Notes under the pieces: model-generated
What the model was told of the DNA's origin: nothing
Seen by the model: the letters and a program-made list of their open reading frames with translations, nothing else
Databases searched by the model: none
Part shown: piece by piece, positions 6,564 through 34,163 of the stretch
Position numbering within the stretch: the first letter of the stretch is position 1
Layout: the number at the start of each line of letters is the position of its first letter
Position numbers and translations under genes: made by a program
Source: a virus
Length of the DNA: 36,671 nt
IMG/VR virus record: IMGVR_UViG_3300038415_000180
Strand: one strand, 5' to 3'

Positions 6564-6878
6564 ATGACAACCAAGATGAAACGAGTCAAAGGACCTGATG
6601 ATGTCCCGATTGGACCTCACTTTGCTGTGATCATTTACGGCAAGAGGAGTATCTACATCGAGGGTGACGAGCGCTCGCGGACCGCCCCAGGACACGGATA
6701 CCCAGCCCATACGGAACGCTTCGATGACATTGAGCACTGGGTGACAACCGAGCGAGCAGTTCTCGACGAGTTCGTCAGCGTCCAGGAAATGGCAACAGGC
6801 TCGAACAAGAAGCCCTATGTCGTCATCGAGGTGACCAAGAAGGGTGGGGTCAAGCACAACACCTCGGTCACCTTCTGA
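6564..6878 (+). CDS. Hypothetical protein, 104 aa.
   Basis: ORF with a TGATG overlap with the next gene. Confidence 0.5.
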   Translation: MTTKMKRVKGPDDVPIGPHFAVIIYGKRSIYIEGDERSRTAPGHGYPAHTERFDDIEHWVTTERAVLDEFVSVQEMATGSNKKPYVVIEVTKKGGVKHNTSVTF

Positions 6879-7288
6879 TGCCGAAGCCAGGGTGGCTTAA
6901 GGTTGGCCTCTGGCTACTGAGGGTAGATGCTCCTGAAGGACCTCCAGTCAGGGTTACCAAGATCTCTCGCCTGTGGGTAGACATGGATGACGAGAGTGGT
7001 GACCTTCATTGCAGGGTTAGGGTCCCCAATATCCGAGAGTTCTACTTCTCCACCGCTTACTTCGAGTGCGACGACTGCTGTAGGGACACCCAGAGCCCTA
7101 CCCATTGCGGGCCTTGCCTCAGACGCAAGTGCGCTTTCTCTATCAGTGGAAACCACCATTGCGAGCTACCACACACCTGTAAGAGAGCATTCCGAGAGTA
7201 TCCCGTATCCAAGCTACCCATGGAGCTACCTAAACATGGAAGGCCCAATGTCATCCCTACTCGGTACGAGAGGAAATGGGTAATCTAG
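6878..7288 (+). CDS. Cys-rich hypothetical protein, 136 aa, ending in the shared C-terminal tag ...IPTRYERKWVI*.
   Basis: ORF with clustered cysteines (CDDCCRD...CGPCLRRKC...HHCELPHTC). It carries the conserved C-terminal motif. Confidence 0.55.
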   Translation: MPKPGWLKVGLWLLRVDAPEGPPVRVTKISRLWVDMDDESGDLHCRVRVPNIREFYFSTAYFECDDCCRDTQSPTHCGPCLRRKCAFSISGNHHCELPHTCKRAFREYPVSKLPMELPKHGRPNVIPTRYERKWVI

Positions 7289-7309
7289 TTATGGTGTACC
7301 TCAAGAAGA

Positions 7310-8227
7310 ATGCCATTCAACAGCATCTTGGAGTACGTGGAAGGCCCGACTGGCCTTAACTGGACCCTGTATCCAGTCCAGCGGTTCATCCTGAAGCTCT
7401 ACTACGGACTTGAGTTAGACAACACTCAGAGGACAATCATTGTCCCGGACATGTTCAATGAGCAGGAGTACCTGAGATTCCTCTTTGAGGAGGGTCGTTG
7501 CAGCATCAGCGACCAAAGCTCTATACCGCGCAGGGGAATGATACTCTCAGTTGGTCGACGGACTGGAAAGAACATGCTGGCAGGGTTCATTGCCACCTAC
7601 ACAATCATCGAGCTGTTGCAGATGATGAACCCTCACCCCGTCTTTGGGTTGACACCAAGGCAAACTCTCTACGTCATGTGTTTTAGCATGAGCACCGATC
7701 TACGAGATGCTCTAGCCTCAGAACTACACACTAATGTTGACCATTGTCAAGCTCTTCGGAGTGCGGTAACCAGCAGCTCCCTCGCTAATATCACCTTCGA
7801 GACCTATGCTGGAAGGCAAGCTGGACTCACCCAAGGTAACTTGAGACTCAGGTCGTACTCAAACATTGCTAGGACAAGGGGATTTAGTGCAGTACAGCTT
7901 GTGGTAAATGAGCTGGCTCACATGACCCATGAAGCGGATGTGTATGCCTCTCTCATGCCAACGGTAACCACACCCGGGCGCTACATCATCCTGTCAACCC
8001 CGAGGGAGGCCTCGGGAGCCTTCTATAGCGCCTTCACGTGGGGGATGCAGAACCATAACCAAGACTCTCCGCTCGCCCTTCAGATCCCCACGTGGGAGAT
8101 TCAGCCAAACGTTGGTGATGGTTACCTCAGAGCACAATACGAACTGGACCCTCATCGGTTCCTAGTTGAGTTCGGGGCTGTATGGGAGCACCACGGTCGA
8201 CTGATCACAATCGACGTTACTATTTGA
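7310..8227 (+). CDS. ATPase domain resembling a phage large terminase subunit, 305 aa, with atypical Walker motifs (GRRTGKN; VVNELAHM).
   Basis: The order and spacing of its motifs fit T4 gp17-type terminases. These are YPVQR (Q-motif-like), VGRRTGKN (Walker A-like), LVVNELAHM (Walker B-like) and YIILSTPREASGAFY (motif III, compare IITTTPNGLNHFY). No nuclease domain follows. Confidence 0.45.
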   Translation: MPFNSILEYVEGPTGLNWTLYPVQRFILKLYYGLELDNTQRTIIVPDMFNEQEYLRFLFEEGRCSISDQSSIPRRGMILSVGRRTGKNMLAGFIATYTIIELLQMMNPHPVFGLTPRQTLYVMCFSMSTDLRDALASELHTNVDHCQALRSAVTSSSLANITFETYAGRQAGLTQGNLRLRSYSNIARTRGFSAVQLVVNELAHMTHEADVYASLMPTVTTPGRYIILSTPREASGAFYSAFTWGMQNHNQDSPLALQIPTWEIQPNVGDGYLRAQYELDPHRFLVEFGAVWEHHGRLITIDVTI

Positions 8228-8534
8228 GCGCGTCGGTGATAGCATCGATGATCTTGAGGAGTACGGAGTCTTCATTATTGTCAACAACGAAAGTAAGCTC
8301 TCCCGGATCAACTACCATGAGATCCACCATGCTTGTAGCGTATTGCTTGTTCCACCCCTCAGCATCCCATGCTTCAGCCGCTTCCTTTGATCGATAAACG
8401 AACACCTCTATCGGACTATCGATCTCGACTACCGAAGTACCCCACACACTCTCTATCGCTTTGATGGCCTCCACAAGGGTCTGGTCAGGAGGAAACTTGC
8501 TTGGGACCGTAAGGTCATATCCGCCGATGTCCAT
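8220..8534 (-). CDS. Hypothetical acidic protein, 104 aa.
   Basis: ORF that converges on the terminase-like gene. Confidence 0.45.
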   Translation of the reverse strand: MDIGGYDLTVPSKFPPDQTLVEAIKAIESVWGTSVVEIDSPIEVFVYRSKEAAEAWDAEGWNKQYATSMVDLMVVDPGELTFVVDNNEDSVLLKIIDAITDALK

Positions 8535-8541
8535 TAGACTC

Positions 8542-8643
8542 CTAGTGCTCGCACACTACCAGAAGTACACCGATTATTAGCAGGGCAATACCAAACCCCT
8601 TGGCTACTTGAAGTAGGATCTCTTGTCGTATTTTGGTTGTCAT
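8542..8643 (-). CDS. Small hydrophobic peptide, 33 aa (MTTKIRQEILLQVAKGFGIALLIIGVLLVVCEH).
   Basis: Short ORF with one TM-like segment, positioned between two genes of the same operon. It is below the track cutoff. Confidence 0.25.
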   Translation of the reverse strand: MTTKIRQEILLQVAKGFGIALLIIGVLLVVCEH

Positions 8644-32504: not shown

Positions 32505-32616
32505 TTTTAGGTAAAGCGGGTCACCTAGATCAGATAGGATAAGTAGAAACGATTGCCCACATCAGTATAAAACCGTGCATTAGTAACCTTAACAATCCTA
32601 CCTTTCGGTGTAGCAG

Positions 32617-32844
32617 TTGAATATGTCTTCAATCAAAGGTGAGCCTACGTTTGTTGAGGTGAGTTGGGTTGACATCACCGACCAGGATATAGCAAAAGTA
32701 TCAGAGGCATCAGGCCTTTCCCCTGAAAGGATCAAACAGTACTTGGAGAGCGAGGAGCAAGACAATAACGTTTTGCGATACTTCGCGCTAATTAGGGTCT
32801 ATCCGAGGGGTAAACTCTTCCAATCGTACAAGCAACCCGCTTAG
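32617..32844 (+). CDS. Small acidic hypothetical protein, 75 aa, divergent from the sigma-factor gene.
   Basis: ORF. Confidence 0.35.
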   Translation: MNMSSIKGEPTFVEVSWVDITDQDIAKVSEASGLSPERIKQYLESEEQDNNVLRYFALIRVYPRGKLFQSYKQPA

Positions 32845-32869
32845 GATCTGTTTTTGGGGTATTAGTGGC

Positions 32870-33400
32870 ATGGCAAGCAACCATTATCGTCGGGTGTATC
32901 TTGCCGGCCCGGATGTCTTCTTCCCTGATGTGGCCGAGCGATCAGCTAGGTTGAAGGATACCTGCCGTCATTATGGCTTCGAGGGAGTGTTCCCCCTCGA
33001 CTCTGGAGTCAAGATCACAAGCGCTCTTGCGCGCGAGGAGAACGGCTACCTCATCTACGAAGCCAATATCAGTCTCATTCGTTCCTGCCAGGCCATCCTG
33101 GCCAATGTAACCCCCTTTCGAGGCCCGTCGGTTGATGCCGGGACCGCTTTCGAGATTGGTTTCGGTCGCGCTCTCGGTCTCGAAGTTGTCGGGTACACAG
33201 CTATCCGCAACTTGTACAAGGAGCGGGTAACCCCGGATGGTCTGATGGTCGAAGACTTTGACATGGTCGACAACCTCATGATTCACTCTGCTATGTGTGG
33301 GGATATTTTCAGCACCCCACAAGAAGCACTTGACTACTTGGCCATCTTGTTTGACTCTGGCGAGCCCACAGCCCGCGTGAGCAGCATCAGACGAACATGA
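32870..33400 (+). CDS. Nucleoside 2-deoxyribosyltransferase / deoxynucleotide N-glycosidase (Rcl/DNPH1) superfamily protein, 176 aa.
   Basis: VYLAGPDVFFPD and SVDAGTAFEIGFGRALG match the family hallmarks (IYLAGP.F and D.GT.FE.GYA). Confidence 0.65.
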   Translation: MASNHYRRVYLAGPDVFFPDVAERSARLKDTCRHYGFEGVFPLDSGVKITSALAREENGYLIYEANISLIRSCQAILANVTPFRGPSVDAGTAFEIGFGRALGLEVVGYTAIRNLYKERVTPDGLMVEDFDMVDNLMIHSAMCGDIFSTPQEALDYLAILFDSGEPTARVSSIRRT

Positions 33401-33675
33401 GTTCTCGTCGCCTAGCAGTCAAAGTCATCCACGGTCAAGGAACAGAGCCAGAGCTCTTTGAGATCCCACTGAGTGGTCCTATTGGATCAAAGTTCAACCT
33501 GTTCGTGTTCCGCGGCGAGTCTACAATGAGTGAGAAGGAGATTCAAGACTTAGTAGAGATCTCTGGCAGACTGTCAGGTAATCCTTGCACAGCACTCATT
33601 CTGGGGGCAAATGACCAGTTCGAGGTGTATGAAGTCGAGATTCCAACCCGTTACGAACGTGACCCGGTGATCTGA
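33397..33675 (+). CDS. Hypothetical protein, 92 aa, ending ...EIPTRYERDPVI* (the shared tag).
   Basis: ORF with an ATGA overlap with the upstream gene. Confidence 0.55.
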   Translation: MSSRRLAVKVIHGQGTEPELFEIPLSGPIGSKFNLFVFRGESTMSEKEIQDLVEISGRLSGNPCTALILGANDQFEVYEVEIPTRYERDPVI

Positions 33676-34163
33676 TGCCTCGCTTATCCATCCGAATTGC
33701 AATGACGGACGATGAGAATCGTACCTTGGTCAGTCATGCTTGGGCCCCACTGAGTTACGAGGACTTTAACAACCCAGCTTTACTTGACCACTCTGACGGG
33801 TCGCTCGTAAACCAAACCGAGCGAGACTTGCTAGAGAGAATTCGGACTGCAATTGACCGGTCACTCCTAAGGTTTTCACGCGGGGAGCGAAGACGATTCG
33901 AGACAAGAGCGGCTAGACCAGATCTTACCGATATCAGTTTCTCTGAGAACTATGATATTGATGAGCCACGAGACGTACCCCTAGGTATAATCAGTGCTAT
34001 TCAAGCTAGTAGGGCTAATATAGCTGATCCTCAGTATATGCATATACTCACTGAAGCAGAGCGTATGGCCGTTATAGGTAAGGTCATCCCAAAAGAGGAC
34101 GAGCCTCTACTGAAACCAGAACCAAAGCGCCTGAATCGTTACCAGCGTAAGCCAGTCATCTGA
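33675..34163 (+). CDS. Hypothetical protein, 162 aa, ending ...KRLNRYQRKPVI* (the shared tag).
   Basis: ORF with a TGATG overlap with the upstream gene. Confidence 0.55.
   Translation: MPRLSIRIAMTDDENRTLVSHAWAPLSYEDFNNPALLDHSDGSLVNQTERDLLERIRTAIDRSLLRFSRGERRRFETRAARPDLTDISFSENYDIDEPRDVPLGIISAIQASRANIADPQYMHILTEAERMAVIGKVIPKEDEPLLKPEPKRLNRYQRKPVI

Follow-up and report, generated by a model that had tools for sequence, protein, structure and literature searches.

The window analysed here is the whole 36,671-nt stretch of IMG/VR record IMGVR_UViG_3300038415_000180, and nine of its open reading frames (ORFs) end in the same short peptide, referred to below as the tag, with the consensus [RI][PLV][STN]-R-Y-x-R-x-[PW]-V-I-stop. 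The gene content of the window points to a phage. A TerL-nuclease-like protein is encoded by a gene that adjoins one tagged gene, and the other recognisable genes include those for an HD deoxynucleoside monophosphate phosphatase, a sigma-70-type factor and a nucleoside 2-deoxyribosyltransferase, while most of the remaining ORFs of the window have no match in databases and a megablast comparison with GenBank phages and plasmids gave no near match. Orthologues of the tagged proteins were found on contigs of 225 kb and 442 kb, and those of an MVP-like protein encoded in the window on contigs of 443 kb and 435 kb; the element belongs to a lineage of ~440-kb megaphages with a G+C content of ~0.52. 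The IMG/VR contig 3300038415_000126 (98.5 kb) is 100% identical over 4.3 kb to the Logan contig upstream of the window, and it derives from the same phage or a nearly identical one. The readable sequence amounts to ~84 kb of this ~440-kb phage genome, together with fragments of relatives. A first-pass annotation of the window, made from the letters and a list of ORFs only, without database searches, had listed eight ORFs and one 'orphan' copy with this ending, and all of them end as it stated (Table 1).

Table 1. Features of the window, numbered from its first nucleotide; each C-terminus is followed directly by the stop codon.
Position	Strand	Length (aa)	Feature	C-terminus	Remarks
1457-4093	+	878	MVP homologue		
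6878-7288	+	136	tagged ORF, Cys-rich	...NVIPTRYERKWVI	tag nt 7253-7285, stop TAG
8914-9273	-	119	untagged, paralogue of 12474-12872		
9374-10411	-	345	tagged ORF, FAM5	...ASIPTRYKRKPVI	tag nt 9377-9409
10972-11412	+		tagged membrane protein, FAM9	...KSKSRYERDPVI	start uncertain (10924 or 10972)
11405-12025	-	206	tagged ORF, FAM2	...RYLTRYERPWVI	overlaps the FAM9 gene by 8 nt
12022-12432	-	136	tagged ORF, FAM3	...GFPNRYHRKPVL	
12474-12872	+	132	untagged, paralogue of 8914-9273		
15875-16558	-		IS1595-type transposase		
18552-18716	+		tagged 'orphan' copy, FAM1	...RPSRYNRKPVI	internal ATG at 18606
25208-28495	-		classical AAA ATPase		Hint+LAGLIDADG intein in Walker A loop, GPQG/C...THN/SGKT
31005-31442	+	145	tagged ORF, one or two hydrophobic segments	...VSRYERISDPVKWVI	variant tag
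33397-33675	+	92	tagged ORF, FAM4	...VEIPTRYERDPVI	
33675-34163	+	162	tagged ORF, FAM6	...KRLNRYQRKPVI	

The tag is found at the extreme C-terminus wherever it occurs. The window has 1,119 stop-to-stop ORFs that reach 20 aa; nine of them have the ending RY.R.{1,8}[PW]V[IL], and the one other ORF that ends in [PW]V[IL] is a 26-aa scrap. The strict motif RY.R.[PW]V[ILV] has eight copies in the six-frame translation of the window, all eight with a stop codon directly after them, and no copy in 200 shuffles of the window sequence. The enrichment at C-termini extends to the relatives: 83 distinct copies were counted in 275 kb of sequence of the lineage, and the stop follows directly in 83 of 83, with none internal. 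For some loci the search pattern itself contained the stop codon; at least 29 copies, in the window and in L001, L002, L039 and L043, were found without such a pattern and are all terminal too. The logo of 66 distinct tails reads [RI][PLV][STN]-R-Y-[EKQ]-R-[KPE]-[PW]-V-I; Val-Ile are the last two residues in 63 of these tags, and the residue at P-2 is Pro in 45 and Trp in 21. Conservation falls on positions -1, -3, -5, -7 and -9, plus -2 and -8, with -4 and -6 variable. The shared peptide had been recognised correctly, but not its length, as positions -11 to -9 ([RI][PLV][STN]) are conserved as well. In this phage, 21 tagged ORFs were counted in ~84 kb, corresponding to ~14% of its genes (nine in the window, four in the upstream piece L039, five in L003, one in L053 and two in L056).

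Selection on the tag acts at the peptide level. Third codon positions of the invariant residues have an identity of 0.35, and the 30 nt that follow the stop one of 0.26; Arg is encoded by all six of its codons, Val by all four and Ile by all three, and the copies lie on both strands and employ all three stop codons. These values bear out the earlier statement that the DNA under the motif is not conserved, and they give no sign of the translated nucleotide repeat that had been considered as its refutation. Within nine orthologous families, the identity is 0.89 in the tag, 0.48 in the preceding 20 residues, which form a linker, and 0.48 in the body; within each protein, nothing is as well conserved as the tag. 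In FAM1, for instance, the tag is 100% identical and the linker only 28%, that is, almost wholly replaced. Tagging is also constant by family, since tagged orthologues retain the tag and untagged families remain untagged. The gene that ends at 11412 (+) and the convergent one that ends at 11405 (-) share 8 nt in the palindrome GTCATATGAC, and therefore both read Val-Ile-stop. P0011 is a natural FAM4-FAM6 fusion in which the stop after the first tag was lost; the copy that became internal now reads ...PVT, and the new terminus retains ...RYKRKPVI. The stop codon itself is TGA in 36 of 47 tagged genes and in 104 of 207 untagged genes (Fisher p = 0.001, with genes that are not phylogenetically independent), an excess that may be due to ATnTGA favouring ATGA or TGATG overlaps with the next gene.

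The proteins that carry the tag form ~35 BLAST families of small proteins. No significant homology between families was detected by BLAST or by hhalign (best P 0.011 in 78 comparisons), so that full-length paralogy found no support, and none of 29 family representatives matched Pfam or PHROGs. None of the enzymes and regulators that could be recognised, ~14 in number, bears the tag. Tagged genes occur in tandem runs, and there is one clear paralogue trio (L035 5011-6035). The description of the proteins as otherwise unrelated stands as far as homology between families is concerned, but not entirely, since about a quarter of them share an N-terminal pattern, M-[PAS]-[RKQS]-x(0-2)-h-x-h-x-h, present in 13 of 48 tagged proteins and in 2 of 272 untagged ones (counts that are not phylogenetically independent). 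Because this pattern is enriched in tagged proteins, some tagged families may be very old paralogues. It is often followed by DD.G, it is seen, for example, in the proteins at 9374-10411, 12022-12432, 33397-33675 and 33675-34163, and it coincides with the first beta-strand in a model of FAM4.

The 20 residues ahead of the tag are composed of 12% Pro, 10% Arg and 9% Glu. In the AlphaFold2 model of FAM4 (mean predicted local distance difference test score, pLDDT, of 77), the domain reaches ~80 and the tag 33-56, with the last ten residues unfolded and not packed against the domain; the tail is thus predicted to be exposed and disordered. Proteins with hydrophobic segments are tagged at the background rate (6 of 48 tagged versus 33 of 272 untagged). 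The membrane protein FAM9 has three hydrophobic segments followed by a 62-aa basic tail with the tag at its end, and since this tail opens with a K/R cluster, we infer that the FAM9 tag faces the cytoplasm.

As regards the individual tagged genes of the window, the Cys-rich protein has a tagged orthologue at L043 19594-20016 and no match in Pfam, NCBIfam or PHROG. The FAM5 orthologues (P0001-P0003, L001 and L038) retain the tag on a body just 31% identical; in a 442-kb relative, L002, the FAM5 orthologue (10001-10951) is frameshifted, and the tag IPTRYQRKPVI-stop is found shortly after the called stop, in a different frame. Tagged orthologues of FAM9 are present in L001, L002, L007 and L038, and those of FAM3, whose tag is the sole window copy with a terminal Leu, in P0008, P0012, L001, L002 and L007. 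The copy at 18552-18716 is not an orphan, as had been thought, but a 5'-truncated member of FAM1, a conserved tagged family of 65-70 aa (P0005-P0007). It is without the first ~15 codons of its orthologues, L021 has the same truncated form, and in the window at 18552-19247 a convergent conserved 147-aa gene is frameshifted near a G6 run at ~18881-18886; the truncation and the frameshift of the neighbour may reflect pseudogenisation or an assembly error. The ORF at 31005-31442 is the least certain tagged member because six residues are inserted in its tag, ahead of the terminal WVI; the gene calls of the Logan record do not include it, and there was no orthologue for comparison. The operon of the nucleoside 2-deoxyribosyltransferase and the HD phosphatase also contains FAM4 and FAM6, linked by translational coupling, an arrangement kept in seven loci.

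Some further observations concern the neighbourhood of these genes. The two untagged paralogues of Table 1 bracket the densest tagged cluster, and they are kept as a pair in L001, L002 and L038, with one copy in L007 (4.4 kb). The transposase lies within the phage genome (zinc ribbon E 4e-14, DDE domain weak). On the contig 3300038415_000126 (L053, 5104-8563), two genes for paralogous HExxH proteins (443 and 452 aa) are succeeded by one for a full-length ThiF-family E1-like protein (E 4e-72), and the run also holds one tagged gene; the arrangement is not kept at the syntenic place in L054 or L055.

The distribution of the tag beyond this phage was examined in several ways. Scans of metagenomes and IMG/VR with DNA patterns for two tag variants gave ~25 further loci, most of them with several tagged ORFs, the other matches being chance matches in low-G+C sequence. 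An exhaustive hidden Markov model (HMM) search of 1.84 billion representative proteins, a search blind to isolated tags, returned seven matches at E<1e-3; six of them end in the tag and belong to tagged families of the window or its relatives, and the seventh (P0010) is an unrelated repeat protein. A word-indexed protein search with the tag profile gave eight candidates only, with an index unsuited to a 9-residue motif. The commonest tag variant was at chance level, with three hits, in 185,579 species-representative genomes. A match in a Microcoleaceae metagenome-assembled genome (MAG; L004) was rejected as a clue to the host, being out of frame inside a 408-aa chromosomal gene; that in L006/L030 is a matter of chance as well, and L005 is without any stop-terminated copy. 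Since the HMM matches are families of the lineage and the reference genomes are at chance level, the tag is private to one megaphage clade.

Two proteins encoded in the window had been put forward as the machine to which the tag leads, a vault-shell-like protein and an AAA ATPase. The first is a true MVP homologue (Pfam shoulder domain E 3e-9, PDB MVP chains E 6.5e-14), as had been suspected, and tagged genes flank it in the window, L039 and L043. Its gene and the tag are, nevertheless, dissociated in both directions, which speaks against it as the receptor. The relative L002 is colinear with the window at 70-80% DNA identity and retains tagged genes on both sides, but it is without window positions 146-5173, which hold a 333-aa gene and the MVP-like gene, and without 6880-8715; none of 49 MVP-like homologues comes from the L002 contig. 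Conversely, no tag was found near the MVP-like loci L049, L050 (a chromosome of the Candidate Phyla Radiation, CPR) and L051 (a huge phage). An MVP-like shell is therefore a very improbable receptor. The closest cellular MVP-like genes, with 41-45% identity, lie on chromosomes of CPR 'Candidatus Uhrbacteria' MAGs beside ribosomal genes (L050; P0038-P0049), and others at ~24-29% identity occur in other huge phages; the CPR relatives may offer only a hint about the host of the megaphage clade or about gene transfer.

The idea that MVP-like genes are generally flanked by private sets of C-terminal peptides was also considered and rejected, as L049, L050 and L051 show nothing of the kind. LR756500.1 (L041) is an unrelated huge phage of 462 kb and 24% G+C in which a row of six genes (11601-17016) lies a few kb away from the phage's own MVP-like gene; the encoded proteins have a common N-terminus (MKYI.EYEEF), a common C-terminus (NADDFG[FML][FL]DN-stop) and differing middles, and two of them are leucine-rich repeat proteins. 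Because their N-terminus is common too, this set may be a paralogous family. Two proteins of LR756501.1 (L042) end in DPYGEE.W..., and huge phages may more widely combine conserved termini with variable cores.

The AAA ATPase was taken in the first-pass annotation for a Vps4-type enzyme, and its intein was missed. Once spliced, its AAA module is closer to Cdc48/p97 D2 (2e-30) than to CdvC/Vps4 (1e-19). Its N-region (~440 aa; aa 1-476 searched), where an enzyme with Vps4-type MIT-MIM recognition would carry its MIT domain, has no Pfam or PDB match, and a single-sequence AlphaFold2 model of the N-domain (pLDDT 39) is unusable. Homologues with the same N-region, at 64%, 48% and 40% identity, were found on contigs of 63, 407 and 448 kb (L058, L059 and L061), which have another G+C content (0.45, 0.58 and 0.59 versus 0.52) and no synteny with the window; the intein is retained in L058, and L059 and L061 (756-761 aa) have none. 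No tag lies within +-10 kb of these three homologues, and their contigs are without a match in either tag scan of IMG/VR. This AAA protein thus exists without the tag; it is still a conceivable receptor, but nothing positive links it to the tag. A second PF00004 AAA ATPase gene (L040 16349-17293) starts 5 kb downstream of the window and is cut by the contig end; the phage encodes at least two classical-clade AAA ATPases.

Considering these data, we find it highly probable that the tag is a functional, portable C-terminal docking or recognition peptide that needs its free carboxylate. The general idea of a portable signal, already put forward in the first-pass annotation, gains from the terminal position of 83 of 83 copies, the freedom of the codons, the identity of 0.89 against 0.48 and the disordered tail. 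We hypothesize that the tag is a short linear motif of 9-11 residues on the flexible linker of many small accessory proteins, and that one common cytoplasmic receptor would read it as an extended strand plus a free carboxylate. All tagged proteins would therefore share one fate. The alternating conserved positions may make up one side of a strand that lies extended in a groove, and we infer a single receptor, strand-like binding and a tag that faces the cytoplasm.

The reader that we weakly favour, though it is somewhat doubtful, is an AAA+ unfoldase or protease, either a host enzyme of the ClpX or FtsH type or one of the phage's own classical AAA ATPases, for which the tag would act as a hard-wired ssrA- or MuA-type tag, setting the lifetime or the remodelling of early accessory proteins. 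Because membrane and soluble proteins are tagged at an equal rate, the reader would work from the cytoplasm on both classes, and because ~14% of genes means many competing ligands, an enzyme that turns over its substrates would fit better than a stoichiometric hub. With clients that probably amount to dozens per genome, a turnover enzyme or a many-site lattice is favoured, and the operon context of FAM4 and FAM6 points to early or middle intracellular proteins. An AAA+ tag would fit best because there are many clients, soluble and membrane proteins are treated alike, the proteins are small, fast-evolving and without matches, and the context is early or middle. Taken as a whole, this explanation is tentative and has rather less than an even chance of being right. 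Several points weigh against it. No receptor was identified, a protease partner was not seen in the ~84 kb available, and the phage AAA protein with a homologous N-domain exists in tag-free megaphages. With R, Y, R, V and I invariant, a stretch of 9-11 residues is more specific than most degrons, and the N-terminal pattern, for which this explanation does not account, could reflect binding of the tag to other tagged proteins. Early or middle timing was read from gene context, and the statement that no core protein is tagged rests on limited sampling of partial genomes. It is also conceivable, if unlikely, that the megaphage clade runs a sorting or proteostasis system of its own, in which a C-terminal 'postcode' would direct proteins to a dedicated, as yet undescribed phage-encoded reader for sorting to a phage-built structure or for scheduled removal. 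Such a postcode would mark perhaps 10-15% of the proteome, ~50-100 fast-evolving accessory proteins including membrane proteins, and the system would be a virus-encoded analogue of PTS1/Pex5 or ssrA/SspB/ClpX.

Other destinations for the tagged proteins can be imagined. The tag may be a recruitment or sorting signal for a polymeric structure built by the phage (a shell, compartment, factory or membrane lattice), which we consider unlikely while giving it some weight: a strictly terminal peptide after a flexible linker resembles cargo-loading peptides and PTS1, and a many-site lattice suits many different clients. It would be odd for import into a compartment, however, that no recognisable enzyme or replication protein is tagged, and integral membrane proteins are tagged at the background rate. 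If the structure were the MVP-like shell, the tagged genes that flank its gene in the window, L039 and L043 would be explained, but not the tagged L002, which is without the MVP-like segment, nor the MVP-like loci L049, L050 and L051, which have no shared C-terminal peptides nearby. With a still lower probability, the tag may dock small takeover or anti-defence proteins on one host protein, such as the polymerase, the clamp, a chaperone or an envelope hub. A slowly evolving host target would fit a tag that stays near-invariant where orthologous proteins have diverged to 30-50% identity, and the tagged proteins are indeed small, fast-evolving and without database matches; the different G+C contents of the tag-free, AAA-bearing megaphages (0.45, 0.58 and 0.59, compared with 0.52) may also mean different hosts. 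Against such hijacking, no native host ligand was seen, given the three hits of the commonest variant in 185,579 genomes and the chance nature of the two examined, L004 and L006, and dozens of ligands for one stoichiometric site would be awkward.

Packaging into the virion, in which tagged proteins would enter the very large capsid and be injected along with the DNA as T4 internal proteins are, appears improbable. Membrane proteins are not depleted among the tagged ones, FAM4 and FAM6 lie in a nucleotide-metabolism operon and not in a late structural module, structural genes were not seen near most tagged clusters, and the T4 signal is N-terminal and cleaved off; on the other side, ready-made delivery would benefit small and diverse accessory proteins, a megaphage capsid is roomy enough, and the TerL-nuclease-like gene adjoins one tagged gene. 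The need for a true C-terminus would equally fit a substrate tail for an enzyme acting there, by E1/ThiF-like adenylation and conjugation or by metallopeptidase trimming, and the same phage has its ThiF-family protein beside two HExxH proteins in an operon-like run with a tagged gene. The ThiF protein looks, however, like a canonical MoeB/ThiF, enzymes that take Gly-Gly tails and not Val-Ile, and the ThiF and HExxH genes are absent from the syntenic place in the many-tag loci L054 and L055, which leaves this explanation with very little probability. Finally, the tag could lack a dedicated function, either as what is left of a single paralogous family that expanded or as a nucleotide element (a terminator, recombination site or coupling signal) that happens to be translated. 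The tandem runs, the paralogue trio, the N-terminal pattern in about a quarter of the tagged proteins and the enrichment of TGA stops could be read in this way, but the third-position and downstream identities are at the random level, both strands and all three stop codons are used, the families show no homology by hhalign, and a relic would decay at least as fast as the remainder of the protein, whereas the tag is its best-conserved part. A functionless relic or a DNA element is therefore largely excluded, and it is the explanation to which we attach the least probability.

Short terminal address labels are central to cell biology, as signal peptides, PTS1, the ssrA tag and encapsulin cargo peptides demonstrate, but hardly any case is known to us in which a phage uses them across its proteome. 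In the present case, one label is found on about a seventh of the genes sampled and is the best-conserved feature of proteins without database matches. Its 11 residues could serve as bait for the reader and as a portable tag, and so open a route into the 'dark matter' of megaphages. If the reader is encoded by the phage, giant phages would organise or time their own proteome by a private code, and a compact orthogonal tag for synthetic biology might be obtained. Searches of the literature found no description of the motif, in agreement with the earlier remark that no such system was known, and only reports of viral and bacterial MVP turned up.

Previously described systems offer several points of comparison. 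The ssrA tag (AANDENYALAA) and the C-terminus of MuA (RRKKAI, a ClpX signal, basic and then aliphatic) likewise occupy the last ~8-11 residues of the protein, end in aliphatic residues and present a free carboxylate; they can be moved onto any protein and act from the cytoplasm on soluble and membrane proteins, and MuA is itself a phage protein. The length and conservation of ssrA resemble those of the phage tag, and so does the basic-then-aliphatic end of MuA. The phage tag differs in being encoded by the gene and not added by trans-translation, and in its sequence, with R, Y and R invariant, which is unrelated to AANDENYALAA. Encapsulin cargo-loading peptides are also short, conserved and C-terminal after a flexible linker, and they bring unrelated proteins to one partner. 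They have another consensus, do not strictly need the terminal carboxylate, and contrast with a tag that has dozens of clients including membrane proteins; no encapsulin/Linocin or HK97 shell gene was found in Pfam scans of the window, L039, L040, L053, L056, L003 and L057.

The ligands of PTS1 receptors, PDZ domains and TPR carboxylate clamps share with the tag the absolute C-terminal position, the hydrophobic last residue and, as predicted for the tag, an extended-strand geometry in which alternate residues face the receptor. Compared with class II PDZ ligands, the tag has Ile at P0, and its Pro at P-2 is atypical; it also differs from these ligands in conserving Val at -2 and residues out to -11. 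No TPR or PDZ protein was found in the ~84 kb available. The capsid-targeting signal of T4 is a short phage-encoded peptide that gives several unrelated small proteins one destination, but it sits at the N-terminus, from which the prohead protease removes it, and its conservation is loose, whereas the tag is always C-terminal and its gene context is no late structural module. In vaults, the INT region of VPARP binds MVP, and an MVP homologue is encoded a few kb from the tagged genes; INT is, however, a domain of ~160 aa against 9-11 residues, and the MVP-like gene and the tag are dissociated both ways. In position and portability the tag resembles the ssrA/MuA, encapsulin, PTS1 and PDZ/TPR classes, but by its sequence it is a member of none of them, and the available sequence did not reveal the partner genes by which those classes are defined. 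It stands out for the scale on which it is used in a phage proteome.

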